A DNA stretch of 64,000 nucleotides from the NCBI GenBank assembly GCA_965198005.1, contig CBDAOI010000004.1:2336001-2400000 (forward strand). Direction: 5' to 3'. Below the pieces are notes generated by a model. It was not told where the DNA came from. It saw nothing but the letters and a program-made list of their open reading frames with translations, and searched no databases. Of this stretch, positions 12,719-61,333 are shown in pieces. Positions within the stretch are counted from its first letter, which is position 1. Each line of letters begins with the position of its first letter. This DNA comes from Spirochaetia bacterium. GTDB taxonomy: Bacteria > Spirochaetota > Spirochaetia > SZUA-6 > Bin103. Made by a program: the position numbers and the translations under genes.

Positions 12719-12885
12719 GAGGCATTCTCCTGGACACCGACATCGCCATCGACTACCTGCGTGGAGTCCAGGCAGCGGTCGATTTCGTCAAGCAGCATGA
12801 GAGGGAGATTTCGCTGTCGGCCGTGACGGTTGCCGAGCTCTTCGCAGGTGTGAGGGACGGCGACGAGACGGTCAAGCTGGAGGAC
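12715..12885 (+). pseudogene. VapC/PIN toxin, 3'-truncated
   Basis: LLDTDIAIDYLRG, SAVTVAELFAG, then fused head-on to SBP antisense. Confidence 0.8.
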
Positions 12886-40904: not shown

Positions 40905-41692
40905 GCGCGACATCCACCGGTTAGGGGCAACGCAACCGGCGTGTCCTACCATTGCCCCCCCCGGAATCCTTTCGCGGCGGGGGTTGACAAATGGTGGGCC
41001 CCCCAGACTGTCTCTTCAGGCCATCGACTGCCGTTCACCGAGGATTGCTGGGGCGATTCGTGGTTGACGTCCTCGGGAGTGGAGGTTATTATAGGGTGGG
41101 ATGCAGTCAATCGCGACTACATCTGGGTCTGGGTATAGCTGTGCCTCACCTGCGGAGGGCTTGAGTGACCTATAACACGTCAACCCTTATGACACTCTGT
41201 TCCCCTGACAGCCGCTCGCCGAGATTTGCTGAAAATCAGCTCGCGGCGCGCTTGCTTAATGGTGAGGAGTGCCCCCCCCCCGGCGCCGGGCAACACACCT
41301 AACTTTTCATTCACCCCAGAAACAGCTAACCGCTCCGGCCGACCGGGCGGAGCACGCGCACCTGCGTGTGCTCCTGCGCACACCCGCGCCTTCGGCATCA
41401 CTCCGTCAACTACCGGGCCAGGCGATCCAGGCGACACCCTGCGCCTGCCGCGTGGCCGTGTGGATGGCGTCGAAATCCGGAACTCTGCGGAACAAGGAGG
41501 TGCAAGCTGATACTCAAAGAACCACACCAGGCGCGCGGCCTGAGCCCCTGAGTTCATGAGGCACACGCCGCGCGCTCCACGATTGGAGATTGCCGTTGCT
41601 GTCTGGCCGCCCGCGTTGCGGGCGCGAGAGTGGCAGCGAAAGGCAACTCGCCGGCAGAACTCTCAAAATCAGAGTATGGAGGAGAGATCATT
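40905..41692 (+). promoter_or_regulatory. SBP leader interrupted by an IS-end-like piece
   Basis: IHRLGATQPACPT..PP (about 40910), C11 (41271-41281), GAAACAGCTAACCGCTCCGGC, GGAGG-CTGATACTCAAAGAACCACAC, GAGAGT/ACTCTC. Confidence 0.7.
41168..41228. repeat. About 60-bp repeat shared with 56361-56421 (probable IS end)
   Basis: ACCTATAACACGTCAAC.CTTATGACACTCTGTTCCCCTGACAGCCGCTCGCCGAGA. Confidence 0.7.
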
Positions 41693-43474
41693 ATGAATCT
41701 TCCAAGAATTGCACACCCCTTCGTGGTTGTGCTCGTGTTCGCCCTGGTCGCGACCGGCATCTGGGCCAGCGGCGAGAGCGACCAGCCGGCCGCGGCGGTG
41801 GAGAAGGAGATGGTGCTCGACCCGTCCACCGGCGAGATGGTGGAGGCGCCGCAGTATGGCGGGAGCGTCACCTATGCCCGGCCCAACCTGGGTGAGCATA
41901 CGGATGTATGGTACATCAGCGGCTGGGCCACCCACTGGATCAGCGAGGTGGTCGAGAAGCTCGTCATCGTAGATTGGGCGCTGGACAGGAAGATAAACAA
42001 CTTGCGGACCTATGACGTGCCCTGGTCTATCTTCCGCGGGGCGTTGGCGGAGAGCTGGGAAACGCCCGACGCTACCACGATCGTCGCCCACATCCGTCAG
42101 GGCGTTCGCTGGCACGACAAGGCACCGATGAACGGTCGGGAGCTGACCGCCAGCGATGTCGAGTTCAACTTTCATCGTCTCTGGGGGCTGGGCAGCGGCT
42201 TCAGCGAAGTCAGCCCAATGTCTGGTGGGGTACACGAAATCGTGGAATCGGTAACGGCCACCGACGCCAGCACGGTTGTCTTCAAGCTGACGAGGCCAGA
42301 CCTCAACGCCCTGCCCAAGATCTTCGACCAGTGGGTTTCGCAGATCTACCCTCCGGAGGTCATCCGGGAACACGGCGACATCAAGGACTGGAGGAACCTG
42401 GTCGGCACGGGCCCCATGGAGCTGACGGACGTGGTCGAAGACGCCTCTCTGAAGTGGACCAGGGTTCCCGACTACTGGGGGTTCGACGAGAAGTTTCCGC
42501 AGAACCGTTTGCCCTACGTCGACGAGATAAACGCCCTCAAAATGCCGGATGAAGCAGCACGTCTGGCGGCCCTGCGCTCGGGCAGGGTTGATCTGCTGGG
42601 GACCGCCGGCGACTCTCAACTGAGGTCAATCGATCAGCTAAAGAGCCTGCGCGAGATCAATCCCGAGATCAATATGTGGGAGTTCGAGTTTCGCTCCGAA
42701 AACGCAACTGCCTTCAACAATGTGAACAAACCGCCCTTTGATGATATCCGGGTGCGTCGGGCCATGCAGATGGCGGTGGATGGCGAGACGATCGCGGAGA
42801 CCTTCTTCAGCGGTATTGGCGATGCGACGCCGCAGGGAACGTTTGCCAATTCCAAGATGGGGGTTGGCACGCCATTCGAGGAGTGGCCCGAAGAGATCAA
42901 ACAGTACTACCGGTACGACCCGCAACGCGCGAAGCAGCTGATGGCTGAGGCGGGCTATCCCGATGGCTTCAAGACCACTCTGTATGCCGGGCAGCGGCGC
43001 GGTTCGAGCTACGAAGAGCTACTCGCCAACTACTGGCGTGAGATTGGCGTGGAAGTCGAGATACGGACGTTCGACTCTACGCAAGGCGTTGCGCTCCGTA
43101 GAGATAATCCAGGAGGATTGATCGCCAATATCGCGGCTATCACATATGACGCAGTCTCTACCCTTAATTGGCACACGTGTGCGAATACCGGGAACCCATT
43201 CGCAGGGTGCGACCCGGAAATTGACGCTCTCTATGAGGCCGCTAACACAGCTTCCACCGTCGAGGAGGCGAATCGGTTGGCCAAAGAAGCGAATCTGCGC
43301 CTCATAGAACTGCACTGGAAGGTCGTTGGTCCAGTTACCCCACAGTTCAACGTCGCCCAGCCGTGGGTCAAGGGCTATAACGGCGAGGTCAGTCTCTCCA
43401 TATCCGGTCATTATTCTACGGTCTTGACCCGTGTCTGGATCGACCAGGATCTGAAGCGGGAGATGGGCTTCTGA
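41693..43474 (+). CDS. Family-5 ABC substrate-binding protein, intact
   Basis: GGAGG SD, signal peptide VATGIWA, conserved SBP blocks. Confidence 0.92.
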   Translation: MNLPRIAHPFVVVLVFALVATGIWASGESDQPAAAVEKEMVLDPSTGEMVEAPQYGGSVTYARPNLGEHTDVWYISGWATHWISEVVEKLVIVDWALDRKINNLRTYDVPWSIFRGALAESWETPDATTIVAHIRQGVRWHDKAPMNGRELTASDVEFNFHRLWGLGSGFSEVSPMSGGVHEIVESVTATDASTVVFKLTRPDLNALPKIFDQWVSQIYPPEVIREHGDIKDWRNLVGTGPMELTDVVEDASLKWTRVPDYWGFDEKFPQNRLPYVDEINALKMPDEAARLAALRSGRVDLLGTAGDSQLRSIDQLKSLREINPEINMWEFEFRSENATAFNNVNKPPFDDIRVRRAMQMAVDGETIAETFFSGIGDATPQGTFANSKMGVGTPFEEWPEEIKQYYRYDPQRAKQLMAEAGYPDGFKTTLYAGQRRGSSYEELLANYWREIGVEVEIRTFDSTQGVALRRDNPGGLIANIAAITYDAVSTLNWHTCANTGNPFAGCDPEIDALYEAANTASTVEEANRLAKEANLRLIELHWKVVGPVTPQFNVAQPWVKGYNGEVSLSISGHYSTVLTRVWIDQDLKREMGF

Positions 43475-43621
43475 GCCAACCGCTTCGCCGTTTGCTTAAG
43501 GAGTCGCTGCGCGACTCCACGAGCTAAGGACCCCGCCTAAAGGCGGGAGTCCTGCCTGCAGAGAGGGGCGCCGGGAGCCGCGCTCGGAAGCGTCTTCCCG
43601 GCGCCCATTTACCACGAAGAT

Positions 43622-44578
43622 ATGAGAGCGTACATCATCCGCCGAGTTCTGCTCCTCATACCCACCTTCTTGCTCCTCACGATTCTGGTATTCCTGTCGG
43701 TGCGCTTCCTTCCGGGGGATGCAGTAGATGCGCTGATCAGTGATATGCAATATGTCGTAGGTGATATAGACCGTGAAGCGCTCGAGCGGATGATGGGACT
43801 GGACCAGCCGATCTACGTGCAGTATGGACGCTGGCTGGCGGGCATCTTCCTGCACGGCACGCTGGGCAATTCCCTCCTGAGCGACTGGCGGGTCGAGGAG
43901 AAGATACTCGGCAGGTTGCCGACGACCGTCGAGCTGGGAGTGATGGCGATCGTAATAGGTCTGCTGATCGGGCTGCCGGTCGGCATCTACTCGGCGATGC
44001 GCCGCAATACAGCCGCCGACTACGTCGGGCGGTCGGTCGCCATCATCGGCCTGGCAACGCCCAACTTCTGGCTGGCAACCTTGATATTGACCTTTCCTGC
44101 CATCTGGTGGGCCTGGTCGCCACCGTTGACGCTCGTTCCGTTCCGCACAGACCCGTGGGACAATCTGGCTGTCTTCATCGTGCCCAGCCTGATTCTGGGC
44201 ACCTATCTGGCGGCAGCCACCATGCGGATGACGCGCACCATGATGCTGGAGGTGCTCAGGCAGGACTACGTCAGGACCGCCTGGTCCAAGGGTCTCAAGG
44301 AGCGGGTCGTCATCGTCAGACACGCCATCAAGAACGCCCTGATCCCGGTGGTCACCCTGATCGGTCTGCAGATGCCGATCCTGATCGGCGGCTCGGTGAT
44401 CATGGAGAACATCTTCGGCCTGCCGGGGCTCGGTCGCCTGATGCTCGATGCCCTAACTGACAGAGACTACCCGGTGGTCGCCGGCATAAACTTGACGTTC
44501 GCGGCCGCGGTCATGGGAATCAACCTGATGGTCGACCTGATCTACGCTGTTCTGGATCCGCGGGTCCGGTACCGCTGA
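43622..44578 (+). CDS. OppB/DppB-like permease
   Basis: Intact paralog. Confidence 0.92.
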   Translation: MRAYIIRRVLLLIPTFLLLTILVFLSVRFLPGDAVDALISDMQYVVGDIDREALERMMGLDQPIYVQYGRWLAGIFLHGTLGNSLLSDWRVEEKILGRLPTTVELGVMAIVIGLLIGLPVGIYSAMRRNTAADYVGRSVAIIGLATPNFWLATLILTFPAIWWAWSPPLTLVPFRTDPWDNLAVFIVPSLILGTYLAAATMRMTRTMMLEVLRQDYVRTAWSKGLKERVVIVRHAIKNALIPVVTLIGLQMPILIGGSVIMENIFGLPGLGRLMLDALTDRDYPVVAGINLTFAAAVMGINLMVDLIYAVLDPRVRYR

Positions 44579-45510
44579 TGGCCGAACGAGTGCCGGACGA
44601 ACGAGCCGCCGAACGGGCAGCCGCCGCCGCGACCAGGCGACCGGAGCGCCGGTTTTTTTTGGGTAAGTGGCTGAGACGACTGGTCAAGGAGCAGCCCCTG
44701 GGTGCGTTCGGGGGCGTGGTGCTGCTGGCGCTGGTCCTGGTCAGCATCTTTGCCGGTTTCCTGGCGGGGCACGATCCCAACCAGATGACGCTGGCCGACC
44801 GGCTGCAGGGCCCGTCGGGCGAGTATCCGCTGGGCACCGACCAGCTCGGGCGCGACTTCCTGAGCCGCCTGATCTACGGGGCGCGCATCTCGCTGTTCGT
44901 CGGTCTGGCGGCAACCACGCTGCACGTGGTGGTTGCGATGCTGATAGGCGGCACCGCGGGATTCATCGGCGGCAAACTGGACCTGTTGGTGCAGCGGTTC
45001 GTCGATGCCTGGATGTCGTTCCCGGGCCTGCTGCTGTTGCTCACGATCATGTCAATCGCCGGGCAGGGGCTGCTGCAGATAATCGTGATTCTGGGGGTAT
45101 CCTCGGGCATCAGCAATTCGCGGGTGGTGCGCGGCGCGGTGATCGGGATCAAGGAGAACGACTACTTCCAGGCCGCGCAGGCGATTGGCGAGGGCATCTC
45201 CGGGACCCTGCGGCGGCACGTGCTGCCCAACATCATGGCGCCGATCATCGTGATCTTCTCGATCACCATCGGCGGCATCATCGTGGCGGAGGCGTCGTTG
45301 AGCTTCTTAGGGTTTGGCCTGCCGCCCGGGGTGCCGAGCTGGGGCGGAATGCTGAGCCGGGAAGGGCGCCAGTACATGGAGATGGCGCCGCGGCTGGCGA
45401 TCTGGCCGGGCCTGTGCCTGACCATCGTGGTGTACAGCATCAACATGTTCGGCGACGCGCTGCGCGACCTGCTCGACCCCCGGCTGCGCGGCAGCGTCGG
45501 CAGCGTCTGA
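44578..45510 (+). CDS. OppC/DppC-like permease
   Basis: Intact paralog. Confidence 0.92.
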   Translation: MAERVPDERAAERAAAAATRRPERRFFLGKWLRRLVKEQPLGAFGGVVLLALVLVSIFAGFLAGHDPNQMTLADRLQGPSGEYPLGTDQLGRDFLSRLIYGARISLFVGLAATTLHVVVAMLIGGTAGFIGGKLDLLVQRFVDAWMSFPGLLLLLTIMSIAGQGLLQIIVILGVSSGISNSRVVRGAVIGIKENDYFQAAQAIGEGISGTLRRHVLPNIMAPIIVIFSITIGGIIVAEASLSFLGFGLPPGVPSWGGMLSREGRQYMEMAPRLAIWPGLCLTIVVYSINMFGDALRDLLDPRLRGSVGSV

Positions 45511-45532
45511 CCGCCACTGTCGGCAGCCATGC

Positions 45533-45811
45533 CTATTCGTCCACTCGCCGTAGAGCTTCGTCCATCACCTGTCGCGAGAGATGAAGACCAGCGATCATCA
45601 TTTCCTTGATGACGGGCCGAGCTTTCGGGATGAGCCCTCGTCCCTTAACTGCCTTCCCGTCCCTGGCAGACACCTCTGCTGTCGCTGGGACGGCCGTCGG
45701 GTGGATGCATGGTTGGTGTACGGAGAAGCAGACTGGCGCCCTCGGTGATCGGACGCCGCCGCTCCAGCTCGTGGGCCTGCTGTTCAGTATCTTTATGCCG
45801 ACCGACCTCAT
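45533..45811 (-). pseudogene. Chimeric remnant: Phd-like N-terminus plus DUF3368-like C-terminus
   Basis: MRSVGIKILNSR...; KGRGLIPKARPVIKEM..AGLHLS....EALRRVDE. Confidence 0.5.
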
Positions 45812-45916
45812 GGGACGTGGGGTAGCTCCTAGTAGCTACTTCGTCAAGGTGTTTCGGCATCAAGGAGCACGGCTCCTTCGGTTGATCAGCGCGCCGTCTC
45901 GGGTTATACTGCTGGT

Positions 45917-46156
45917 ATGAAAACGGCTGTGTCCCTTCCTGATGAGCTCTTTCATGCCGCGGAACGGCACGCACGAAGGTCGAACAAGTCCCGCAGTCGG
46001 CTCTACACCGAGGCGATCGCCGAGTACCTCGACCGACATACCCCTGATGAGGTCACCAAAGCTATGGACCGGGTGGTCGACCGTCTCGGCGAAACGGAAA
46101 GCGACGATTTCGTATCGCGTGCAGCGCAGCACACACTGGAACGTGTCGAATGGTAG
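45917..46156 (+). CDS. RHH antitoxin (MazE-like partner)
   Basis: MKTAVSLPDELF..AE..SRSRLY.EAI...EW; TATACT upstream. Confidence 0.87.
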   Translation: MKTAVSLPDELFHAAERHARRSNKSRSRLYTEAIAEYLDRHTPDEVTKAMDRVVDRLGETESDDFVSRAAQHTLERVEW

Positions 46157-46497
46157 ACCTTGCTCAAGGAGAGGTGTGGTGGGCCGAGTTGCCGGAGCCG
46201 GTAGGTTCCGGCCCTGGTCTGAGGCGACCGATCGTGGTGGTTCAGGGGAACTCCTTGAACCGGAGCCGGATCTCGACGGTAGTGTGCGTTCCGCTGACGA
46301 GCAACCTGGCCTGGGCGGATGCGCCCGGCAACACGGTGCTGCCGGCGACAGTCACCGGCTTGCCGAAAGACTCGGTCGCGAACTCATCGCAGATCGTCGC
46401 GCTTGATCGGCGCGCTCTGGTAGAGCGCGTACGCCGGCTCGAGGATAGGCAGTTGGCGCTCATTATCCGCGGCATCGACATCGTCCTGGGTCGCTAA
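46150..46497 (+). CDS. PemK/MazF toxin
   Basis: QGEVWWAEL..P.GS.PG.RRP.VVVQ, VPLTSN, GLPKDS. Confidence 0.9.
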   Translation: MVDLAQGEVWWAELPEPVGSGPGLRRPIVVVQGNSLNRSRISTVVCVPLTSNLAWADAPGNTVLPATVTGLPKDSVANSSQIVALDRRALVERVRRLEDRQLALIIRGIDIVLGR

Positions 46498-46519
46498 GCC
46501 CAGGCGCTGCATAAAGGAA

Positions 46520-47395
46520 ATGCAAGAATTCAAAGACAAAGTGGCGGTGGTCACGGGAGCCGCCAGCGGTATGGGGCGTGCATTAGTGGAACGTTTTGCG
46601 CTCGAAGGCATGAAAGTGGTGCTGGCTGATGTCGAGGAAAGGGCGCTGGACACCGCAGTGGAGGAACTGCAAGGGCGGGGGTTCGAGGTAATCGGTCAAT
46701 TGGCTGACGTCTCGCAGTTGGCACAGGTTGAAGCGGTGCGCGATCTGACCCTTGAGCAATACGGTAAGGTCCATATCCTCTGCAACAATGCCGGTGTTAC
46801 CTGTGCCTGGGGAGAGACCCCAACTTGGGAAGCCACTATCCATGATTGGGAATGGGTGCTGGGTGTCAACCTTTGGGGTGTCATCCATGGCGTGCGTACC
46901 TTTCTACCGGTCATGATCGAACAGGATGAGGAAGGGCATGTGGTTAACAATTCCTCCGTGGCCGGCCTCGTAACTGGCCCCGGCGCGACCTACGAAGTGA
47001 GTAAGGTTGGCGTGACCAGGATCACGGAGGCTTTGTACTATGAACTGGCGATGTGTGAAAGCAAAGTGAAGTGCACGTTGCTGTGCCCCGGCGAAGTTGC
47101 GACCAATCTGGACCTGGCAGGACGGAACCGTCCCCCAGCCCTGAGAGATGAACATGAGGCTGGGCGTCAAGCAGCACTCGCAGCGCAAAGCCAAGGGCGC
47201 CACGAGCGCCACCAAAGGGATGGGATGGCTCCATCAGAAGTGGCCGACCGCGTGTTGAATGCCATCAAGGAGGAAAAGTTCTACCTCATCACAGAGCCTA
47301 ATCCAGCCTCGCTGGTAAGAATCAAGGATAACGTACGCGTTCGCATGGAATCCATCATCGCTGAACGCAACCTCCCTCTACCCCGTCATCGTTGA
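46520..47395 (+). CDS. SDR oxidoreductase
   Basis: TGAASGMG, NNAG, YEVSK. Confidence 0.9.
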   Translation: MQEFKDKVAVVTGAASGMGRALVERFALEGMKVVLADVEERALDTAVEELQGRGFEVIGQLADVSQLAQVEAVRDLTLEQYGKVHILCNNAGVTCAWGETPTWEATIHDWEWVLGVNLWGVIHGVRTFLPVMIEQDEEGHVVNNSSVAGLVTGPGATYEVSKVGVTRITEALYYELAMCESKVKCTLLCPGEVATNLDLAGRNRPPALRDEHEAGRQAALAAQSQGRHERHQRDGMAPSEVADRVLNAIKEEKFYLITEPNPASLVRIKDNVRVRMESIIAERNLPLPRHR

Positions 47396-47621
47396 TGCGG
47401 GAATAGAACGACAGGCATCGCCGCAGGGTCGCCTCTCGGGCAGCGCGTCCCGAATAGCGAGCGTCACGATTTTAAGTGTTGCGCCTTCAGGCCCGTCGAA
47501 ACGGGCTACTGTTGCGGTGCCACCATCTGGTAGGCCGGTCGGCGCCGCATCCCACGGCCGGCCATTCCGACCTTTGAATCGTTGGCGCCGCCACGGCGCT
47601 CACAGCCGCCGTGATTGCCTA

Positions 47622-47762
47622 TTGACGTGTTTGCCACAGGTGTGCCATGGTAAGCGCCACGGGTTTTGAACGGATGCAAATGACACGTGGTTACACCACT
47701 CAGCACTGCCACCGGTTAGCGCCCCAAGACCGACGCCCGAGGCGCCGCCCCGCAGGACCGTA
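47622..47762 (+). promoter_or_regulatory. SBP-leader remnant (promoter plus start of uORF1)
   Basis: Close homolog of 10710-10863; MQMTRGYTTQHCHRLAPQDRRPRRRP. Confidence 0.7.
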
Positions 47763-47765
47763 GCC

Positions 47766-49245
47766 ACATCAAGGATTGGCGGAACCTGGTCGGCACGGGG
47801 CCGATGGAGCTCACTGACGTGGTCGAAGGCGCCTCTCTGAAGTGGACCCGGGTGCCCGACTACTGGGGGTTCGACGAGAAGTTCCCCCAGAACCGCTTGC
47901 CCTACGTCGACGAGATAAGCGCCCTCGACATGTCGGATCCTGCGGCGCGTCTGGCGGCACTGCGCTCGGGCAAGGTGGATATGCTGGGGACTGTCGGCGA
48001 CTCTCAAGTGAGGTCAATCGATCAGATGAAAAGCCTGGACCAGACCAATCCCGAGATCAATACGTGGGGCTACCAGTTTCGGTCTGAACACGCATTTGCG
48101 CCCAACAACATCAGCACACCGCCATTCAATGACATCCGCGTGCGGCGGGCCATGCAGATGGCGCTGGATCTGGAGACGATCAGTGAGACCTACTTCAGCG
48201 GTTTGGCCGATCCGACTCCGCAGGGGTTCTTGAACAATGCCAAGCAGGGGATTGGCACGCCATTCGAAGAGTGGCATCAACCTGACGTTCGCGGCCGCGG
48301 TGATGGCAATCAACCTGATGGTCGACCTGATCTACGCCGTTCTGGATCCGCGGGTCCGGTACCGCTGATGGCACTGATGGGTGAACGAGTGACGGCCGAA
48401 CGGGCAGCCGCCGCGGCGCCGAAGCGACCGGAGCGCCGGTTTTTTTGGGTAAGTGGCTGAGACGACTGGTCAAGGAGCAGCCCCTGGGTGCGTTCGGGGG
48501 CGTGGTGCTGCTGGCGCTGGTCCTGGTCAGCATCTTTGCCGGTTTCCTGGCGGGGCACGATCCCAACCAGATGACACTGGCCGACCGGCTGCAGGGCCCG
48601 TCGGGCGAGTACCCGCTGGGCACCGACCAGCTCGGGCGCGACTTCCTGAGCCGGCTGATCTACGGGGCGCGCATCTCGCTGTTCGTCGGTCTGGCAGCGA
48701 CCACGCTGCACGTGGTGGTTGCGATGCTGATAGGCGGCACCGCGGGGTTCATCGGCGGCAAACTGGACCTGTTGGTGCAGCGGTTCGTCGATGCCTGGAT
48801 GTCGTTCCCGGGCCTGCTGCTGTTGCTCACGATCATGTCGATCGCCGGGCAGGGGCTGCTGCAGATAATCGTGATTCTGGGGGTATCCTCCGGTATCAGC
48901 AATTCGCGGGTGGTGCGCGGCGCGGTGATCGGGATCAAGGAGAACGACTACTTCCAGGCCGCGCAGGCGATCGGCGAGCGCACCTCCGGGACCCTGCGGC
49001 GGCACGTGCTGCCCAACATCATGGCGCCGATCATCGTGATCTTCTCGATCACCATCGGCGGCATCATTGTGGCGGAGGCGTCGTTGAGCTTCTTAGGGTT
49101 TGGCCTGCCGCCCGGGGTGCCGAGCTGGGGCGGGATGCTGAGCCGGGAAGGGCGCCAGTACATGGAGATGGCGCCGCGCTTGGCGATCTGGCCGGGCCTG
49201 TGCCTGACCATCGTGGTCTACAGCATCAACATGTTCGGCGACGCC
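47766..49245 (+). pseudogene. Deleted paralog of the 41693-45510 cassette: SBP middle, oppB tail, nearly complete oppC
   Basis: SBP piece 47766-48273 fused via GGC to the oppB 3' end; oppC near-identical to 44578-45460, T7 vs T8 frameshift, cut at FGDA. Confidence 0.88.
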
Positions 49246-49592
49246 CATCCTTCGAGTTGAGCGTGTGCGCCGATGAAGAAATCTGGCAGCGGGACCAGGG
49301 GCGCCACCGTTCCTTGCTGCTTTCGGCGCCGCTCGCGGTACCGGCGATAGGCGGCCGCACATCCGGCTGATGCGGCCGCCGGAAGGTCGAGGGTCTGCAC
49401 GCCCCACGACCGCAGGCGACCGGCTGCCAACTCCGGCTGCCGGTCACCGACACCGACCTCGGCAATGCTGACCGCATTCGCGCCGGCGCCATCACCGACA
49501 ACACCTTCGGCGATCGTCGAAATCGCCCACTCGTGGAACGGTGAGCGCGGCTGAGACGCGTAGATCAGAACGTTGGTGTCGAGCAGGATCAC
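49246..49592 (-). pseudogene. VapC/PIN toxin, 3' end lost
   Basis: ILLDTNVLI, LPDFFIGAHA; the TRD motif is replaced by oppC antisense. Confidence 0.8.
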
Positions 49593-49822
49593 GGCTCGCG
49601 GGTCACCTCACGCAGTTCGTCCCAGGCGAGGGTGGGGCGAAGCGGAGCGGCCTCGATCGCGGCTCGACACTCATCGAAGCTCATTTGTCGCGTGGAGCCA
49701 ACCGGTTCAAGGCGGGTCAAGACGATCCGGCTATCGGACTCCTCCGCGACGCTGAACACCTCCCCGGGACGAGTAGCTCCGAGCACGATCCGTTTCTTCG
49801 AATCGATCACGCGCACCCTCAT
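49589..49822 (-). CDS. AbrB-like antitoxin
   Basis: IDSKKRIVL...PGEVF; GTGA overlap with PIN. Confidence 0.7.
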   Translation of the reverse strand: MRVRVIDSKKRIVLGATRPGEVFSVAEESDSRIVLTRLEPVGSTRQMSFDECRAAIEAAPLRPTLAWDELREVTREP

Positions 49823-50319
49823 AATGGGAATTTTCCACCCTTCGCCGCATCTGTCAAGCTGACCCGGGTGCGGCGTGCCAAGCAGCCGTTCCGTCCGACC
49901 GGGCGGCGCACGCCGTACCTGCGTGTGCTGTTCCAACAGGTCGACGAGGAACTCTGGCGCTGATGCGCATCTGTCCGGACATCTCCGGGTACAGCCACTT
50001 CAGGCGAGGGATGCCGGAGGCGGTGCGAACCGTGACCCGGGCCCGGTCGGTGTTGGTGGCGGCCATCCTCCTGGGCGAGTGGGTGCCGGGTTGGCGGCCA
50101 TCCGCCGTCGGCGCCGGTCGGGAGCGGCACACCACCCCGCATCGCGTTGGCACGCAGGTGCGGACGCCCGTCGAGCGGTCGGTGTTGGCCTGATGGGACG
50201 CACCCGCGCCACGCGCTGGGCACGCCACAACACCGCCGGCACCCAGACCAGACCCTATTCTGGTCCGAAAAAGCGGACCAGCGGGCGATGCCTGTGCATC
50301 GCTTTTCATGGTCTTCCGT

Positions 50320-50563
50320 ATCACGCAGTGACCGTGCCGACTCTATCAATTGCCGAAACCTACAGAAAATGGAGGTGCAAATGATACTCAAAGAACCGCA
50401 CGCGCGCGCGGCGTGAGCCCGGGTGAACCCGGTGAGTCACACGCCGCGCGCTTCAGGAAGTTGACTCTATCTGGCTGGTCGCCTGCGTTGCGGGCGCGAG
50501 AGTAGCCAGGAAGCGGCAATCCGCTTCGCAATACTCTCGAAAAATCCACATACGGAGAAACGT
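50320..50563 (+). promoter_or_regulatory. SBP leader, 3' part
   Basis: TCAATTGCCG.AACCTACAGAAAA.GGAGGTGCAA shared with 14491-14525; hairpins; CGAGAGTA/TACTCTCG. Confidence 0.75.
50381..50416 (+). CDS. Leader micro-peptide MILKEPHARAA
   Basis: GGAGGTGCAA-ATG. Confidence 0.65.
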   Translation: MILKEPHARAA

Positions 50564-51737
50564 ATGAACATTGTAAAAATCAGAATGACCTTCGCGATTG
50601 CGTTGGTCCTCGCCCTGACCGCAACCGGCCTCTGGGCCGCCGGCGCAGATGAGGAGCCGGCAGCCGCCGCCGACAAGAAGTATGTAACCGACCCCACAAC
50701 CGGCAAGGTGGTGACTGCGCCAGAGTATGGCGGGACAATAACCTTCGCCCGAAAAGAAGAGCCGGCGGGTCCTGACGCCGTGCTCAGTGGTTTATGGGTG
50801 CTAGACTACGTCGGTGGCGTTCTAGAGAAGCTGGCCATGGCGGACTGGGCAACGCCCAGAGACAAATTTGACTTCGTAGGTTATGCAGTGCCTCTATTCG
50901 CCTTAAAAGGGGCCCTGGCGGAAAGCTGGTCGCAGCCCGACCCACTGACGTATGTCGTCAAAGTCCGCCAGGGCGTTCACTGGCACGATAAGGCACCGAT
51001 GAACGGTCGGGAGCTGACTGCCGATGATATCGTATATAACTATCACCGAATCTTGGGACTCGGCAGCGGGTTCACCGAACCTAGCGAATTTGCCACCACT
51101 AGCTGGGCCGGTGTGCAAGTGGAATCGATAACGGCCACCGACAAATGGACGGTTGTTTTTAAGCTGAAGGAGCTAAACCTCCGTGCGCTGGCTGCTATCC
51201 TCGACGGCCACATCGTCTGGATATACCCCCCCGAGGTAATCAAGGAACACGGGGACGTTACGGATTGGAGGAACCTGGTCGGCACCGGACCCTTTATGCT
51301 GACTGACTGGACCGAGGGCAGCTCTGTCACCTGGGACAAGAACCCTGACTACTGGGGCTACGACGAAAAATACCCGGAGAACCGCCTGCCCTATGTCGAC
51401 CAATTAAGGGCTCTGCTTATGCCCGAGGTGGCAACAATGTTGGCGGCACTGCGCACAGGTAGGGTTGATCGTGGATACGAATTAAGGAGTCTCGACCAGG
51501 TAGAGAGCCTCCAGCGCACTAACCCCGAAATCGTGATATGGCCATTTTCCAATCGGTCGGATAATGCTTTCGGTATGAACGTTCAGTTGCCGCCCTTTGA
51601 CGACATCAGGGTGCGCAAGGCACTGCAGATGGCAATAAACCTCGAGGAAATTAACAATGCCTTCTACAAGGGTTATGCAGATGTGACACCCCCGCCTCTG
51701 GGTTGATAGTGAGCTGAAGGAGGCAATGGGTCGATAG
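50564..51737 (+). pseudogene. Family-5 SBP with an internal deletion near 51692
   Basis: GYADVTP fused out of frame to the terminal RLWVDSELKEAMGR*. Confidence 0.88.
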
Positions 51738-51833
51738 AGGGAGCGAATCCCTACTGACCACGCAAAAAAGGGGGCTGGGGGGTTGCGCTTCCGAGCGCGT
51801 CCCAGCCCCTCACTCCTCATTGATAGGTGTTTC

Positions 51834-52636
51834 GTGAGAGCCTATATTATCAGGCGATTATTGCTCATCATCCCCACCATGTTCATATTGAGCATCCTGG
51901 TCTTTCTCTCGGTCCGCTTCATCCCCGGAGATGTAGTAGACGTAATGATGGGTAGGATGGAATACCAAACGATGGGGGCGCAACCATTGAGCTTGGTTTG
52001 ATGGCAATCCTCATCGGGCTGGTGATCGCGTTGCCGGTCGGCATCTACTCGGCGATTCGCCAGGATACCGTCGCCGACTTCCTGGGGCGCTCGGTCGCCA
52101 TCGTCGGCCTGGCCACGCCGAACTTCTGGCTCGGCATAATGGTCATGATCTACCCAGCCATCTGGTGGGGCTGGGCGCCGCCGCTGGAGCTGGTTTCTTT
52201 CACAGAGGACCCGCTGGGGAATCTGGCGGTGTTCGTCATTCCCAGCCTGATTCTGGGAACGGCCGCTGCTGCCGCCACCATGCGGATGACGCGCGCCATG
52301 ATGCTGGAGGTGCTCCGGCAGGATTTTATCAGGACGGCCTGGGCGAAGGGCTTGCGGGAGCGGGCCGTGGTGATCCGACACGCGGTCAAGAATGCCCTGA
52401 TCCCGGTGGTGTCCCTGATCGGCCTGCAGTTGCCGATTCTGGTGGGGGGCGCCGTGATCATGGAGAACATCTTCAACCTGCCGGGCCTCGGCCGCCTCCT
52501 GCTGAATGCCCTCAATGAGAGAGATTACCCGATGGTCTCCGGCATCAACCTGTTCTTCGCCACCGGGGTGGTGCTGATCAACCTGCTCATCGACTTGGTC
52601 TACGCCGTCTTGGACCCCAGGGTCCGCTATGACTGA
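51834..52636 (+). pseudogene. oppB with an internal out-of-frame deletion (about 51985); oppC lost after MTD
   Basis: N-terminus jumps to TIELGLMAILIG. Confidence 0.85.
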
Positions 52637-52870
52637 CACGGCGGTGCTGCGCCGGGTGGAGCGGGCGCCGGGTGGAGCGGGCGCCCGGTGCGGCGGAGGC
52701 AACGAAGCCGGCGGCGTGGCCAAAGCCGGGTCGCAGTCGGTCGTCCGGGTAAGGAAGCCGCGGCGGGAATTGACATTTACGGCACTTGTTGCATTCGTGA
52801 CGTTTGTTGGTTACCGTTGGAAAGCAAGTACGGGAGGATGTTGATGGATGATCACGGGCCGGTCAGTTTC

Positions 52871-53305
52871 ATGGAAACGACGTTGCCAGATGATCGGGAC
52901 GTGGCGCTCGCTGCGCGCTCGAGCCGGAAGCTGGCGGCGCTGAACGACAGCTCCGAGCCGGTGCCGGCACGGTTCGGGATGGTCGAGACGGAAACCGTAC
53001 AGCTTCCCGCTCCGGCGATGCGGCTTCTCCGCGAGATCCTGGACCAGATGGCACGCGGCCATGCGGTAACGCTGGCGCCCGTCCATGCCGAGTTGACCAC
53101 GCGGCAGGCTGCCGATCTCCTGCAAGTGTCCCGGACTCATCTGGTGCAACTGCTCAAGGACGGAAAAATCCCCTGCCGCAAGGTCGGGTCGCACCGGCGC
53201 GTGCGAACGGAGGATATCATCGCCTATCGTCGTGCCACCCAGTCTCGCCGGCGGGACGCGCTGAACGAGTTGACTGCCTACGATCAAGAGCTTGGGCTGC
53301 AGTAG
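52871..53305 (+). CDS. Excisionase-family HTH protein (antitoxin-like)
   Basis: ELTTRQAADLLQVSRTHLV.LL..G.IP..KVGSHRRV. Confidence 0.87.
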   Translation: METTLPDDRDVALAARSSRKLAALNDSSEPVPARFGMVETETVQLPAPAMRLLREILDQMARGHAVTLAPVHAELTTRQAADLLQVSRTHLVQLLKDGKIPCRKVGSHRRVRTEDIIAYRRATQSRRRDALNELTAYDQELGLQ

Positions 53306-53308
53306 CGA

Positions 53309-53878
53309 ATGCAGCACCGGGCGGCGCTGCTCGACGCCAATGTATTGTATCCGGCGGGCGTCCGGGACATCTTGTTGCGTCTGGCGGATCGGGGCCTGTT
53401 CAGACCGTTGTGGACGGCACAGATCCATGACGAGTGGATCCAAAACCTTCTCTCTGACCGCCCTGAACTGACGGCCGACAAGCTGCAGCGGACAAGGTCG
53501 ACGATGGACGAACACTTTCCCGAGGCCATGGTCATCAGCTACGAAAGCCTCATACCAGGGCTTGATCTCCCCGACCCGAGAGACCGCCACGTCCTGGCGG
53601 CAGCGATCTGCGCCCGAGCGGATGTGATTGTAACCCGGAACCTGCGTGACTTTCCGGCGGACAGATTGACGCCGCACGGGCTGGCGGCGCAGCATCCCGA
53701 TGAGTTCATATTGGGTCTCCTTGATGCACACCATGGAGACGTGCTCGCAGCGGTTCGCGATCATCGCACCGCGTTGAGGAATCCACCACGATCGCCTGAG
53801 GAGCATTTGGCGGCCCTCGAGAGCGGCGGCTTGGTGCAATCCGCCTCCATACTCCGCGATTACATGGACACAATATAG
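53309..53878 (+). CDS. PIN-domain protein (PIN_3-like)
   Basis: LDANVLYP..RD, LPDP.DRHVLAAA, IVT.NLRDFP, PDEF. Confidence 0.88.
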   Translation: MQHRAALLDANVLYPAGVRDILLRLADRGLFRPLWTAQIHDEWIQNLLSDRPELTADKLQRTRSTMDEHFPEAMVISYESLIPGLDLPDPRDRHVLAAAICARADVIVTRNLRDFPADRLTPHGLAAQHPDEFILGLLDAHHGDVLAAVRDHRTALRNPPRSPEEHLAALESGGLVQSASILRDYMDTI

Positions 53879-53940
53879 CTCGACATGCGCCGAGGTCGAG
53901 TGGATCAGCGCCAGCGCCAAGCACCAACTCGACGACGCCG

Positions 53941-54297
53941 TTGACAGTTTGCCGCGGGCGTGCGACCGTCCACCGCTCGCACGGCCCACGGTCAGCGCAG
54001 TGACCGGTTGCCGGTGACGCCGGTGACGTCCGAGCGCTTGACCGCTGTTGCAGCGTCGGCTAGGGTGACCACCGTGGGAGCCTCACCGATGCGGCTGATG
54101 CCTGACGTGCCTGACGACACGCGCTTGACGGCTGTCGCAGCGTCGGCTATGGTGCCTGCCTTGGGGATTGTGAGCGATGCGCATGATGCATGACGATACC
54201 TACCCGCACAGCCACTGGTTAGCCTCGAAGCGGCCGGTGATACGTCTGTCTACCCCCCCCGTACCCCCCTGTACCCTTTAGAGATTAGAAAGTTCGT
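53941..54297 (+). promoter_or_regulatory. SBP-leader remnant with two uORF1-type motifs and the poly-C motif
   Basis: TTGACA; QRSDRLPVT; MMHDDTYPHSHWLA...TPPVPPCTL*; 26-nt match to 5346-5371; internal direct repeat of about 34 bp (54034/54121). Confidence 0.6.
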
Positions 54298-54303
54298 CAG
54301 GGA

Positions 54304-55280
54304 CTGCTAGAATCCCAGGCGGGCAAGGCAGCCTACCGGGAGCAACCTTGAGCCCCCCGCGCCGTAGAGCGCCCGGGGGGGACGTGTGCCCCGGTAGGAG
54401 TGCCGCGATGGATACCCAGTGAGGAGCTTCCCACCGGGCGGGGCCCGGCGTGGTCATGTAAGAAACTGTTGTTTCTTAGGAGTAGTGCCAGGTGGGAAGG
54501 TGCCAGGAGCACCGGAGCACCGGAGCACCAGTACAGGGGTGGAACGACATCGTGGCAGCCGAGCTCCACAATCTCTGGAGGTGACAGGATGTCAACCGAA
54601 CAGACCGAACAGACCGAACAGTGGTTCGTGGGTATCGATTGGGCGACCCAGCAACATCAGATTTGTGTGCTTGAGGATGACGGCGCGGTGGTCGCGGAAC
54701 GGCAGGTGGCCCATAGCGGCGCCGGCATCGCCGACTTGTGCGCATGGTTGCACGAGCTATCCGGCGGGCACCCGGAGCGCGTGCACGCGGGGATCGAGGT
54801 GCCGCATGGCGCGGTGGTCGAGATGCTGCTGGAGCGGGAGGTGCAGGTGTACGCGATCAATCCCAAGCAGCTGGATCGATTTCGTGACCGGTTTACGGTG
54901 GCCGGCGCCAAGGATGACCGGCGCGACGCGCGGGTGTTGGCAGACTCGCTGCGCACCGACCGACGCAGCTTTCGTCAGTTGCAGGTGCAGGCACCGCCGG
55001 TGATCGAGTTGCGGGAATGGTCGCGCCTGACTGCCGAGTTGCAGGAGGAACGCAACGGGCTGATCAATCGCATGCGCGAGCAACTGCGCCGCTACTACCC
55101 GCAGCTGATCGAGCTGGGCGGTGACCTCGGCGCGGGCTGGGTTCTGGAGTTGTGGGAGAAGGCTTCGACGCCGGCGGAGGCAGCGCGGGTCCGGAAGGCG
55201 TCGGTCGCGGCCATCCTGAAGCGCAACCGCATCCGGCGCCATGATGCTGTCAGTGTGCTGCGCATCCTGCGGCTACCGGC
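54304..55280 (+). mobile_element. IS110-family element: left non-coding end plus truncated recombinase (ATG 54589)
   Basis: FVGIDWA, GIE, KDDRRDA (DEDD RuvC-like); C-terminal domain missing; TG.TAGAAT at the left edge. Confidence 0.88.
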
Positions 55281-55712
55281 GGCATCGGCGGCTCGCGCAT
55301 CGCGCGCAGTGCCGTCATCGGCATCAGGGAGAACATGTATCTGCAGGCGGCGGAGGCGTTTGGCGCGAGCGCGACCAGGACCATCTTCCGTCACGTACTG
55401 CCCAACATCATGGCGCCCATGATCATCACCTTCACCGTGACCATTGGCGGCGTCATCATGGCCGAGGCTTCGCTGAGCTTCCTCGGTTTCGGCCTTCCCC
55501 CGAATGTCGCCACCTGGGGAGGCATGCTCAGCAACGACGGGCGCCGCTTCATGGAGTTGGCGCCATGGCTGGCCATCTGGCCGGGCCTCTCCCTGACCAT
55601 CGTGGTTTACAGTCTGAATATGCTCGGTGATGCGCTGCGAGACCTGCTCGATCCCCGGCTGAAGGGCGGTGTGGGTCGTCTGGGTGCCAATAGTCGCGCC
55701 AAGTCGGGCTAG
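55278..55712 (+). pseudogene. oppC 3' half
   Basis: GGIGGSRIARSAVIGIRE...DALRDLLDP. Confidence 0.85.
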
Positions 55713-55799
55713 TAGCTAGCTAGTAGTCGCCAGGTAACGTCGCTGTGGTACGGCTTGGGCGCTGTTGGCGGGGCATGCTCCCACGCGTATCATGGTGGC

Positions 55800-56186
55800 A
55801 TGGGTGCGTTCATGGTCGAGTGTAAGCTGTGGGATGTCGCCAAGAGCGGTCCTGAGAAGACGATCGCCGCGGTGCTGGTGGACACCGATTCGGAGTACAC
55901 CTGGCTTCCGGAGGACGTTCTCCTGGCGGCGGGCGTCACAGTCGCAAAGAAGGACCTCGCGTTCGTGATGGCCAACGGCATGACCATCACGCGAGATGTT
56001 GGCTATGCCTTCCTTTCCAGTGGGGAGTTCGAGACGGTGGACGAGGTTGTGTTCGCCCGCTCGGAAGATCTGAGTTTGCTCGGCGCCAGAACGCTGGAGG
56101 GATTCGCCGCGCGGGTGGATTCGCGCGAGAAGCGTTTGGTCGCCGCAGGGCCGATTCCTGTCGCAGGTACTGTCGCGGTCCACTGA
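55800..56186 (+). CDS. Clan AA aspartic protease-like protein (DTD in place of DTG)
   Basis: VLVDTDSEYTWLP, LLGARTLEGF. Confidence 0.75.
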   Translation: MGAFMVECKLWDVAKSGPEKTIAAVLVDTDSEYTWLPEDVLLAAGVTVAKKDLAFVMANGMTITRDVGYAFLSSGEFETVDEVVFARSEDLSLLGARTLEGFAARVDSREKRLVAAGPIPVAGTVAVH

Positions 56187-56234
56187 CTCCACCGTGGGGC
56201 GACACAAGTGTCGCGGGGGCGTGGTTTGCCGCCG

Positions 56235-56421
56235 CCGTCAGGATGGTGGTCAGGCCATGGAATCCGGCGGGCAGGCGGAACAGGCGGTTGGCGGCGCCGA
56301 ACAGGCCCTCGCGGAGCAGCATCGGCAGTGCCGCAAGGACGCCGCCGTAGGCGACCGCGGACCTATAACACGTCAACGCTTATGACACTCTGTTCCCCTG
56401 ACAGCCGCTCGCCGAGAATTG
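56235..56421 (-). mobile_element. Transposase remnant joined to the probable IS end
   Basis: GGVLAALPMLLREGL...LPAGFHGLTTIL. Confidence 0.5.
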
Positions 56422-56480
56422 CCGCGGACTGAACCGATTGTACGGGGCGTGGTATGCTGTGGTGGAATGGAGGATAGCCC

Positions 56481-57287
56481 ATGGCCAGTTCGCTGCTCGC
56501 TCCCGCCAAGGTCCACTACCCCTCATCCGACGGCCGGCCGATGGCGGAAAGCGACTTTCAGCGCACGCCGCTGACCTACGCCGTCGACCGGCTGCGATAC
56601 CACTTTCGCAACCGCCGGGACGTGTACGTCTCCGGCAACCTGTTGCTCTACTACCAGGAGGGGAATCCGCGGGCGGTAGTGGCGCCCGACGTGTTCGTGG
56701 TGCGAGGCGTGGCCAACGCCGACCGCTCCAGCTATCGGCTGTGGGAGGAGCGCAAGGTGCCTGACTTCGTGCTGGAGATTACCTCGCGCACGACGCACCG
56801 CGAGGACCAGGGACGCAAGCGCGAGTTGTACCGTGCGCTTGGGGTGCGGGAGTACTGGCAGTACGACCCGACGGGCGACTATCTGGAGCCTCCGCTGCAG
56901 GGATTGGAGTTGCGCGCGGGGGAGTACCGGCGGCTGCCGGGGCGGGAGTTGGCGGACGGCACGCTGGCGCTGGCGAGCGGCGTGCTGGGGCTGGAGTTGC
57001 GGCTGACGGAGCGGGGGCTGCGGTTCCACGATCCGGACACCGGGCAGGACCTGCCGAACCTTGGGGAGACCGACGAGGCGCGGGAGCGCGAGCGGCAGGC
57101 GCGGGAGCGCGAGCAGCAGGCGCGGGAGCGCGAGCAGCAGGCGCGGCAAGCGGCGGAGACGCGCCTCGCGCAGGAAGCGGCAGCCCGCGCAGCCGCGGAA
57201 GCACGGGTAGCGGAGCTGGAGGCGGTGTTGCGCCGGGAGCGCGGTAGCGATTCCGGTCAGGACGGCAATCCAGCGGCACCTCGGTAG
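56481..57287 (+). CDS. Uma2-family endonuclease with a coiled-coil tail
   Basis: YPSSDGRPMAES, VAPDVFV, PDFVLEITS, GVREYW.YDP. Confidence 0.9.
   Translation: MASSLLAPAKVHYPSSDGRPMAESDFQRTPLTYAVDRLRYHFRNRRDVYVSGNLLLYYQEGNPRAVVAPDVFVVRGVANADRSSYRLWEERKVPDFVLEITSRTTHREDQGRKRELYRALGVREYWQYDPTGDYLEPPLQGLELRAGEYRRLPGRELADGTLALASGVLGLELRLTERGLRFHDPDTGQDLPNLGETDEARERERQAREREQQAREREQQARQAAETRLAQEAAARAAAEARVAELEAVLRRERGSDSGQDGNPAAPR
57076..57146. repeat. 21-bp coding tandem repeat (AREREQQ)
   Basis: AGGCGCGGGAGCGCGAGC[G/A]GC x3 plus a partial unit. Confidence 0.88.
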
Positions 57288-57321
57288 GTGGTAGGGTGTG
57301 GTCGGGTAAGCACCGTTCTGG

Positions 57322-57986
57322 TTGACCCGTGTCACGGGTCCGTGCTACGGTCACACTGTAGAGCCATGAGCTGTCAGATTTCTTCGACTTCTTCGACGCA
57401 GGTGATTGCCCCGAGTCGCGGGTCCGTGCTACAGTCGCACGGTAGAGCCATGGACGGTCCCTGTAGCGCCCACAACAAGTTAGCGCTTATGCCTGTACCC
57501 CCCCCCCCCCCCGACTTTTCGAACCGAGAAACAACTAACCGCTCCGGCTGATCGCCCTGTACGCGACCGCGCGCGCGCCGTCGCCTTCACCACCGCCGTA
57601 GCTATCGGTGGCGCCGGCTCGGTCCATCGCCGAACCGGCATGCGGGCCGCTCGCGCCGTTCCCAGCGGCCGCAACGGTCCCGGATCCCCGCCCGCGACCG
57701 ACTGCCAGCAAAACCCACCGCCGACGTTGCCGGTCATTCGGACTCGCTGCTTCGCCGACTACGACCCCGCGTGGCGTTGTGACGTGAGGAAGAAGAGGAG
57801 GTGAAGATGATACTGAAAGAACCGCACCCGCGCGCGGCGTGAGCCCGGGTGAATCCGTTGAGTCACACGCCGCGCGCTTTTAGTGAATTTGACTCAGACT
57901 GGCCGTCCGCGTTGCGGGCGTGAGAGTAGCCAGGGAGCGGCAAGTCGCTCCGCAATACTCTCAAAATCCAAGCAAGGATACTAACG
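57322..57986 (+). promoter_or_regulatory. Complete SBP leader with a duplicated promoter-like unit
   Basis: 47-bp repeats 57322-57368 and 57406-57452; CTGTA-C15; AACAACTAACCGCTCCGGC; uORF2; TGAGAGTA/TACTCTCA. Confidence 0.75.
57807..57842 (+). CDS. Leader micro-peptide MILKEPHPRAA
   Basis: GGAGGTGAAG-ATG. Confidence 0.65.
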   Translation: MILKEPHPRAA

Positions 57987-59795: not shown

Positions 59796-59893
59796 GGAAT
59801 TCTTCCCTTCTGATCTCAGATTGAGTGGAGCTGGGATGGTTTGCGCTTCCGAGCGCGCTTCCCGGCTCCCATTTCATTGCGTAAGGTGTCCGC

Positions 59894-60853: not shown

Positions 60854-60914
60854 TTTCTTTCGCAGGCTGGTGAAAGAGAAGCCACTGAGCATCATCGCCG
60901 GGGTCGGCGGCAGC
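60846..60914 (+). pseudogene. oppC stub
   Basis: MTDFFRRLVKEKPL then IIAGVGGS (mid-gene), then PIN antisense. Confidence 0.7.
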
Positions 60915-61190
60915 GACATGGAGAATGTCCAGCGACCGGCAGCCAGTGGTCGGCGTGCGCAAGGTCAGCTCGATCGCACGCTCGTGCAGTGCAACCGGGT
61001 CGAGAAAGGGCACGTGATACTGGCCGGCGCGCTTGCGTGTGCGATAGGTGGACAGGAGACCGTCCACCTCCTGCTCGGTCAGCTCATCGATGAACACCTT
61101 GAACCGCAACGCGTTGTACAGTTCCAACTCGAGCACACTCCAGACCGGCAGCGGCTCCCGCTGGGAGACCACCGCTTCTACCCGTCGGTG
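60906..61190 (-). pseudogene. PIN toxin internal fragment
   Basis: LELELYNALR...GCRSLDILHVAAA. Confidence 0.75.
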
Positions 61191-61333
61191 GCCAAGGCCG
61201 CGGGGGTGAGCCGGCCAGCGAATTGGTCCATCAGGTTGTCGGTTGTCGATTCGCGGTGGCATCTTCAGGTCGGGTGCGGTCACCGCAATAATGCGCGGCG
61301 CGTGGCGGCGTGCTACCCTTGGAGCAGACGCCG

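Follow-up and report, generated by a model that had tools for sequence, protein, structure and literature searches.

The element described here is a structured leader lying directly 5′ of a family-5 substrate-binding protein (SBP) gene in a 64,000-nt stretch of a Spirochaetia genome (contig CBDAOI010000004.1, positions 2,336,001 to 2,400,000; hereafter, the window). Coordinates refer to the window and to its plus strand unless otherwise stated; the host assembly (G000) comprises 4.89 Mb at 66% GC and is 90.4% complete. The SBP_bac_5 gene (50564–51706) is truncated, encoding 380 amino acids versus ~600 in its paralogues, and its Pfam match (PF00496, E = 1.1e-49) covers only profile positions 2–246 of 368. 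An initial annotation had placed a covarying RNA structure at 50471–50563, with counterparts at 10.2, 41.6 and 57.9 kb. Every sequence that it quoted was found at all four places, and the module is present as described, although what was flagged is just the 3′ half of a ~200-nt conserved block that starts at 50371. In order, the block comprises a strong Shine–Dalgarno (SD) sequence, a mini-open reading frame (mini-ORF), a 12-bp GC hairpin, the flagged module, and the ribosome-binding site (RBS) and signal-peptide codons of the SBP gene. When the host genome was searched by BLAST with the 212-nt leader, 83 loci were found, of which 72 were near full length; these are referred to below as class A.

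Conservation sets in abruptly at AAGGAGGTG (50371), both in the alignment of the window copies and among the 72 genome copies, so that the SD of the mini-ORF (GGAGG, 50371–50375) forms the 5′ edge of the block. The mini-ORF itself occupies 50381–50416 (ATG ATA CTC AAA GAA CCG CAC GCG CGC GCG GCG TGA; 12 codons, MILKEPHARAA-stop), and its codons 8–12 provide the 5′ arm of the GC hairpin GCGCGCGGCGTG...CACGCCGCGCGC (50404–50451), which appears in minimum free energy (MFE) folds and the pairs of which are near-invariant in 68 distinct class-A copies. The sequence GAGTCA in the hairpin loop (50433–50438) is complementary to a highly conserved TGACTC at 50462–50467, as is the case for 57871–57876 and 57891–57896 in the 57.9-kb copy; this would-be second pseudoknot-like pairing of the 5′ module is near-invariant in the 68 copies, 2 of which carry one double change. 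A further block conserved across classes lies 5′ of the mini-ORF (CCGCCGGCGTTGCCGG..TTCGCTGCGTCGCCGACCACCGCCCC; e.g. window 50150–50370).

The flagged module, 50471–50563, reads CTGGC-TGGT-CGCCTGC-GTT-GCGGGCG-CGAGAGTA-GCCAG-GAAGCGG-CAAT-CCGCTTC-GCAA-TACTCTCG, followed by an A-rich spacer and CATACGGAGAAACGTATG, with the ATG of the SBP_bac_5 gene at 50564. Two helices can be assigned. Helix S1 pairs CTGGC (S1a, 50471–50475) with GCCAG (S1b, 50505–50509), each of its five pairs being kept in 64–68 of the 68 class-A copies. Helix S2 pairs CGAGAGTA (S2a, 50497–50504), which abuts S1b without a spacer, with TACTCTCG (S2b, 50532–50539); the pattern GAGAGT-N20–50-ACTCTC, with which S2 was counted, occurs four times in the window against 0.04 expected, and none of 100 shuffles reached four. 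Between S1a and S2a lies the hairpin P2 (CGCCTGC-GTT-GCGGGCG, 50480–50496), found in the MFE fold and covarying across classes (one pair is GC in 41 copies and AU in 13). A class-A-specific hairpin, P3 (GAAGCGG-CAAT-CCGCTTC, 50510–50527), is tentatively placed between S1b and S2b from the MFE fold; one of its pairs is a G·A mismatch in 18 of 68 copies. The RBS is predicted to fold into a local hairpin (CATACG-GAGAAA-CGTATG, 50549–50566), with the SD (GGAG, 50554–50557) in and at the loop and the start codon (50564–50566) in the 3′ arm. Such a 6-bp RBS hairpin was found in 31 of 68 class-A copies, including a compensated form, CATAGG/CCTATG.

Searching with tblastn located 149 family-5 SBP N-termini in the host genome, 76 of them with a class-A leader. 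Many of the remaining 73 upstream regions carry divergent leaders built on the same plan: a strong SD with a tiny ORF, at least one hairpin, and the same two interleaved helices. A covariance model, R1, was built solely from divergent copies and describes S1 and P2, with S2 left out. Against the host genome it gave 70 matches at E ≤ 0.01, of which 45, in divergent classes, reached E ≤ 1e-9, and it also reached the class-A copies at 50456–50546 and 41585–41672. One class-B copy lies at G000:C4:1651168–1651265, ~684 kb before the start of the window. Nine R1 matches away from the listed N-termini were inspected; seven precede SBP sequence or its remnants, and two are truncated fragments. Beyond the class-A loci, ~44 divergent leaders have this architecture. 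The module, estimated to be present ~115–125 times in this genome, was found solely 5′ of SBP genes or what is left of them and belongs to the leader of most family-5 SBP genes here.

The 149 N-termini amount to an extreme expansion of one transporter component; relatives gave at least 105 Pfam matches in G001, 88 in G007, 59 in G009 and 53 in G010. Another SBP subfamily of the host, beginning MTPRLML... or MALRF... (G000:C4:340104, C1:227442, C2:75113 and ~15 more), has a different conserved leader without the knot, consisting of a poly-C tract of 12–22 C, hairpins GCCGGAGTATCCGGC and CGGGTACCGGGAC..GTCCCG, and the SD GAGGAGGAG. Two pattern searches were set aside: a 17-nt mini-ORF pattern gave 99 loci on the genome contigs, 13 of which matched the leader by BLAST, the rest being chance matches (e.g. 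L032, which is coding), and a 23-nt degenerate core pattern gave four loci in a metagenome scan, two of them full modules identical to each other.

In every class the strands follow the order S1a, loop 1 (usually with P2), S2a, S1b, loop 3 and S2b. As S1 and S2 interleave without sharing a nucleotide, the arrangement is that of an H-type pseudoknot. The initial annotation had taken the CTGGC/GCCAG pairing for a competitor of the outer stem; it is instead the class-A form of S1, which is interleaved with S2, has zero bases in common with it and, like S2, covaries. Because no base is common to the two helices, they need not be mutually exclusive. Outside class A, S1 takes the form of a 12-bp helix with a bulge of 2 nt (TGTCGCCCTCGC / GGCGAGGG-GC-CGGCA; strands GUCGCCCUCGC/GCGAGGGGCCGGC), to which S1a of the 50.5-kb copy is homologous, as aligned by R1. 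Loop 1 measures at least 3 nt, loop 2 0–1 nt and loop 3 7–25 nt; by rule of thumb, such lengths look compatible with simultaneous helices of the H type. Loop 1 may be a mere 3–4 nt or may carry a hairpin, and loop 3 is class-dependent, with only its UG.../...AG ends reasonably constant. P2 is dispensable: a minimal class lacks it, another has it 3′ of S2a, and some class-A copies contain it twice. Tandem duplication of P2 (GCGTTGGCGGGCGCGCCCGCGGTTGCGGGC) was seen in many class-A leaders (e.g. C2:13100, C3:218067 and C4:2048605), in which the first S2 pair is lost (CAGAGTA/AAGAGTA). In all classes the SD begins 8–20 nt 3′ of S2b, outside the knot. The high sequence conservation of the helices, set against loops 1 and 3 that vary in both length and sequence, fits recognition of the helices or an alternative pairing better than it fits a ligand pocket. 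S2 is part of the class-A MFE fold, as given by folding tools that treat nested structures only, and the knot is predicted to be stable; S1 and S2 probably form together as a pseudoknot.

Covariation was assessed between and within classes. Among the S2 variants were GAGAGTA/TACTCTC, GAGAGCA/TGCTCTC, GAGAGTG/CACTCTC, GGGAGTA/TACTCCC, TAGAGCA/TGCTCTA and GAAAGC/GCTTTC; those of S1 included CCCTCGC/GCGAGGG versus CCTTCGC/GCGAAGG, one distal pair that is G-C or C-G, and a proximal pair that is C-G or U-A. In a structure-blind MAFFT alignment of 26 divergent copies (A2; 28 pairs scored), 89.7% of cells were paired, and two-sided changes were seen in 12 of 28 pairs against 6.6 ± 1.2 in shuffles (0 of 500 reached the observed count), which overstate significance because the copies are kin, and against 1–7 in slid controls, which keep this kinship and are therefore the fairer comparison. 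The covariation score was 0.157 versus 0.031–0.065 in the slid controls, and double changes fell in 3 of 13 pairs of S1 and 6 of 8 pairs of S2. RNAalifold, proposed at the outset as a check on more homologues, predicted S1 and P2 unaided from the same alignment. A second alignment (A3) contained 85 matches, 80 of them distinct, aligned to R1; being fitted to S1 and P2, with class-A rows poorly aligned in S1, it gave two-sided changes in 22 of 28 pairs against 13.8 ± 1.4 in shuffles (11 of 13 in S1). S2, of which R1 has no knowledge, nevertheless showed double changes in five of its eight pairs (e.g. AU 64/GC 9, UA 50/CG 11 and AU 28/GC 19).

Within class A, the helices are near-invariant and almost no covariation was found. 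The outermost pair of S2, taken to covary when four copies were compared, read UG in 23, CG in 18, CA in 17 and UA in 7 of the 68 distinct class-A copies; at the next S2 pair GC (45) was accompanied by CC (12), and at a P3 pair GC (40) by GA (18). As class-A changes often break pairs in this way, the covariation inferred from four copies is unsupported there. What stands of the original description is a conserved mRNA-strand structure directly 5′ of the SBP RBS that covaries between classes. Selection is visible within class A in another form: mean column identity in 49 copies was 0.87–0.92 across mini-ORF, hairpin and knot, above both flanks (0.55–0.61 5′ of the SD and ~0.4–0.84 in the coding sequence). 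As to strand, at one S1 position U·G is the commonest pair (43 of 80 rows), which would be a C·A mismatch on the other strand. The overall asymmetry of G·U versus A·C is modest (71 versus 42 in S1 and P2, and 18 versus 24 in S2, the latter inflated by misalignment of class D) and was not used as proof of strand. In our view it is highly probable that the mRNA strand carries a genuine RNA structure under selection here.

The mini-ORF was examined at codons 3–6 of the 68 distinct class-A copies, where 43 synonymous third-position changes (CTC/CTG 20, GAA/GAG 14, CCN 9) were counted versus 4 at positions 1 or 2. Twelve of the 68 stop after MILKEP or MTLKEP, which makes proline the last residue of the short form. 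Across all classes, an SD, start and stop within 15 codons were found in 54 of 80 leaders versus 1.7 in shuffles, and a strong SD-like hexamer in 68 of 80 versus 25 expected from shuffles. On this codon-position pattern and excess of signals, the mini-ORF is very probably translated into a class-specific peptide, the forms read from the divergent leaders being xPKTGYD-stop, MQxLTVY[DG]-stop, M[QER]N-stop or M-stop, and VK[PL]-stop. In having its own SD and a constraint at the peptide level, it resembles a regulatory leader ORF of the tnaC/mgtL type. In some copies the start position reads AAG, ATA or GTA with the strong SD retained; conservation of the SD-like site thus exceeds that of the start codon. 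Repeated ATGTAGG units in leaders of class C (L135, L168) give two tiny ORFs, M-stop and MQN-stop.

A scan of the plus strand between 50000 and 50700 for terminators and promoters gave no terminator-like site and no promoter. Good σ70-like promoters were found 340–560 nt 5′ of the mini-ORF in about a third of leaders, so the whole leader may be very long. Contigs from RNA libraries (4 runs from 4 studies, one recorded as a sponge metagenome) cover leader and SBP genes at ≥95% identity (41300–61200). Some of them match from the SD of the mini-ORF onward and diverge 5′ of it (loose ends at 50371, 50379 and 57796), as paralogous leaders would. Contigs cannot give starts, ends, strand or level, the family is repeated and DNA carry-over is possible, so neither transcription boundaries nor the uncovered parts were interpreted.

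Of 10 genomes sampled from the same genus, 7 have the class-A leader by BLAST. The sole match outside the genus, in a sister-genus genome (G011), falls in a coding region and was discarded. R1 knot matches were obtained in 6 of the 10 genus genomes (54, 30, 20, 16, 8 and 5), and weak ones in 3 of 13 sister-genus genomes, all at one orthologous SBP locus comprising S2a-S1b-S2b. Knot-bearing genomes are G000, G001, G003 and G005–G008; G009 and G010, both complete genomes from the genus, have no knot despite 53–59 SBP matches. Among 151 genomes sampled across the class, the knot was found in the genus only; a single outside match (G042) looks coding. Within these samples, the leader family is confined to one Spirochaetia genus, with one possible further locus in a sister genus, at which the pairing of a 5′ S1 strand is ambiguous.

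Within the window, the four copies listed by the initial annotation are real, and a fifth, class-A copy had been missed at ~14309–14507 on the minus strand (mini-ORF MLLKEPYARAA; BLAST identity 79% over query positions 1–210), where it precedes an SBP gene that is split, as judged from the Pfam matches of its fragments. The class-A copy at 57807–57963 comprises a mini-ORF (57807–57842, MILKEPHPRAA-stop) and a pseudoknot (57899–57963), of which S2 pairs TGAGAGTA (57921–57928) with TACTCTCA (57956–57963), and lies 5′ of an SBP gene identified by Pfam (57987–59795); the 50-kb and 58-kb SBP genes share ~80–86% DNA identity. A divergent copy of the module at 41585–41672 (R1 match, 24.9 bits) has CTGTC/GGCAG as S1 and GAGAGT/ACTCTC as S2 (41626–41664) and is followed by an SBP gene at 41693–43474; CTG stands at 41507–41509 in place of the mini-ORF ATG. 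At 10185–10284 on the minus strand is a class-B module (R1 match, 73.1 bits, E = 3.2e-20) with S1 TGTCGCCCTCGC/GGCGAGGGGCCGGCA, S2 TGAGAGTA/TACTCTCG (quoted as the outer stem GCTTGAGAGTA/TACTCTCGAGC, 10193–10233, minus strand) and the mini-ORF MAPKTGYD-stop (10335–10361). The ATG that follows this leader (10171–10173) is out of frame with the long ORF at 8384–10138 (minus strand). Truncated or split SBP and permease genes occur at 50564–51706, 12872–14771 (minus strand) and 47804–48460 and reflect either decay of the operons or indel errors of a long-read assembly. Between the SBP operons lie a PemK/MazF-type toxin gene, an HTH and PIN pair, an IS110-family transposase and a Uma2-family gene (46150–46497, 52688–53878, 54400–55422 and 56481–57287).

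No Rfam 15 family matched anywhere in the window at the gathering threshold, and none of its 4227 models matched 50150–50650 or eight divergent leaders at E ≤ 1; nothing relevant to the leader was found in the literature, as far as listings and the beginnings of abstracts tell. Known systems share parts of the arrangement. The leader of T4 gene 32 and the rpsO/S15 operator of E. coli likewise have an H-type pseudoknot in the 5′ untranslated region at or just 5′ of the RBS, followed, here as in gene 32, by an unstructured A/U-rich spacer. Those knots bind the product of their own gene, whereas the spirochaete knot precedes more than 100 different genes and has no sequence relation to them; since the gene product here is an exported binding protein, autoregulation is implausible. 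The small H-type pseudoknot riboswitches preQ1-II, SAM-II/SAM-V and guanidine-III, the Rfam models of which were among those searched, are similar in size (70–100 nt), topology, optional loop hairpin and position before the RBS. These riboswitches, however, have invariant loop nucleotides and carry the SD within the 3′ strand of the knot, whereas here the SD lies 8–20 nt downstream and the loops vary. The E. coli tna leader (tnaC and rut) and the Salmonella mgtA leader (mgtL and a Mg2+ sensor) also have a short ORF with a strong SD 5′ of a structured region in a long leader; unlike in those systems, the spirochaete peptides differ by class, down to M-stop, and the knot is without counterpart there.

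We tentatively favor, at rather less than even confidence, a reading in which the knot is a common post-transcriptional operator read by a shared trans-acting factor. S1 and S2 would fold together, and the purine tract at the center (GAGAGUAGG/CGAGGGG) would be clamped by a pyrimidine, anti-SD-like strand on either side; the folded knot, adjoining the landing zone of the ribosome, would act as the shared operator. The sequence-conserved helices would be recognized by a trans-acting factor, for which a protein is likelier than a metabolite, and through this recognition more than 100 SBP mRNAs would have their accessibility to ribosomes and/or their stability set at once. The class-specific parts (mini-ORF peptide, loop 3 and RBS hairpin) may tune single operons. 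Several observations weigh against this reading. In addition to the broken pairs within class A and the kinship of the copies described above, S2b stays unpaired in nested MFE folds of the non-A classes, which choose S1; the knot does not include the SD and shows no evident expression platform; masking of the mini-ORF leaves the predicted P2/S2/P3 fold unchanged, so that coupling between the two modules was not seen; the trans-acting partner is purely postulated; and the same data would be explained by a structural role that is constitutive.

That constitutive role is the main rival. The knot would insulate an A/U-rich RBS from the GC-rich leader, or stabilize or mark a processing end, giving high SBP output relative to the permeases without any sensing. 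A knot predicted to be stable, with S2 in the class-A MFE fold, variable loops and no terminator-like site on the plus strand would all suit such an element. So would the SD-like site in 68 of 80 leaders when only 54 have a recognizable start, which recalls the SD-type 5′ stabilizers of Bacillus, in which a bound ribosome blocks RNase J. RNase J (TIGR00649) was not found in the 90.4%-complete host genome (the control search was positive in 13 of 14 genomes), and the idea of an SD-type stabilizer has lost support accordingly. Moreover, helix sequence conservation far exceeds what pairing needs, and a peptide-constrained mini-ORF would be superfluous for a passive element; we consider a purely constitutive role rather unlikely. 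The on/off switch put forward in the initial annotation would instead have S1 and S2 as alternatives, the opening of S2 freeing ACUCUC (with loop 3) to pair with the SD or AUG and turn translation off. The nested folds of the non-A classes, which favor S1, agree with this, and in some copies S2b and loop 3 pair with the RBS in these folds. Class C alone shows a marked anti-RBS complement: the GCAUC of its loop 3 faces the GAUGC that spans the start codon, with duplex energies of −11 to −13.7 kcal/mol (z ~−1.7 to −2.5). When duplex energies between loop 3 plus S2b and the RBS were calculated for 78 leaders, however, they were on the whole no better than those of shuffles (mean z −0.47, with 6 leaders reaching p ≤ 0.05), with class-A copies at or above shuffled energies (z = +0.53 for the 50.5-kb copy) and the native RBS partner beating swapped partners in 42 of 78. 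ACUCUC gives only four pairs with GGAG, and S1 and S2 need not exclude each other. The switch is accordingly improbable as a general mechanism.

A new class of metabolite riboswitch that senses some global signal, such as nitrogen or amino-acid status or a second messenger, and governs peptide uptake would account for the fixed position before the RBS and for many copies forming one regulon, and the architecture with its optional loop hairpin resembles small pseudoknot aptamers. The lack of any Rfam match at E ≤ 1, an SD outside the aptamer, and would-be pocket positions that are variable or dispensable make such a sensor hard to credit. Attenuation coupled to the mini-ORF, whereby the position of the ribosome at the conserved Pro codon or the stop would select between the GC hairpin and a downstream alternative and so control transcription (Rho-dependent or intrinsic), with the knot an accessory, draws on the codon pattern of a translated mini-ORF, the 3′ codons of which are the 5′ arm of the hairpin. 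When the mini-ORF was masked as ribosome-occupied, the 3′ arm of the hairpin was freed and GAGUCA paired with UGACUC in the predicted fold, and the distant promoters imply a long untranslated leader. Against it stand a U-tract after the hairpin that is not conserved, the absence of a called terminator-like site, peptides that are wholly different between classes down to M-stop, and a covarying knot that would be left unexplained; we give it only a slim chance. Finally, the arms are inverted repeats and the class-A genes are recent paralogues, as a DNA operator, or recent duplication without RNA function, would predict. Instead of fixed spacing and conserved half-sites without compensation, the arm spacing varies from ~25 to at least 31 nt, the repeats interleave, and compensatory changes keep the pairing as the sequence shifts. 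Together with the U·G pair at S1 and a leader more conserved than its flanks, this renders a DNA-level explanation very improbable.

To return to the operator reading, the knot may be the receiver of one trans signal (protein, small RNA or metabolite) that switches more than 100 peptide- or solute-uptake operons together, although we hold this version to be doubtful. If true, no other structured cis-regulatory RNA would have so large a regulon within a single genome, and the mini-ORF peptides, which differ by class, would contribute a second input particular to each operon. Structured 5′ leaders are known as control elements, and this one is uncatalogued in Rfam 15. Its variants form a natural series of minimal and elaborated pseudoknots for structural work, and the element offers a mutable RNA of 70–110 nt as a way into the question of how a very large repertoire for nutrient uptake is coordinated in an uncultured spirochaete of the symbiont type.

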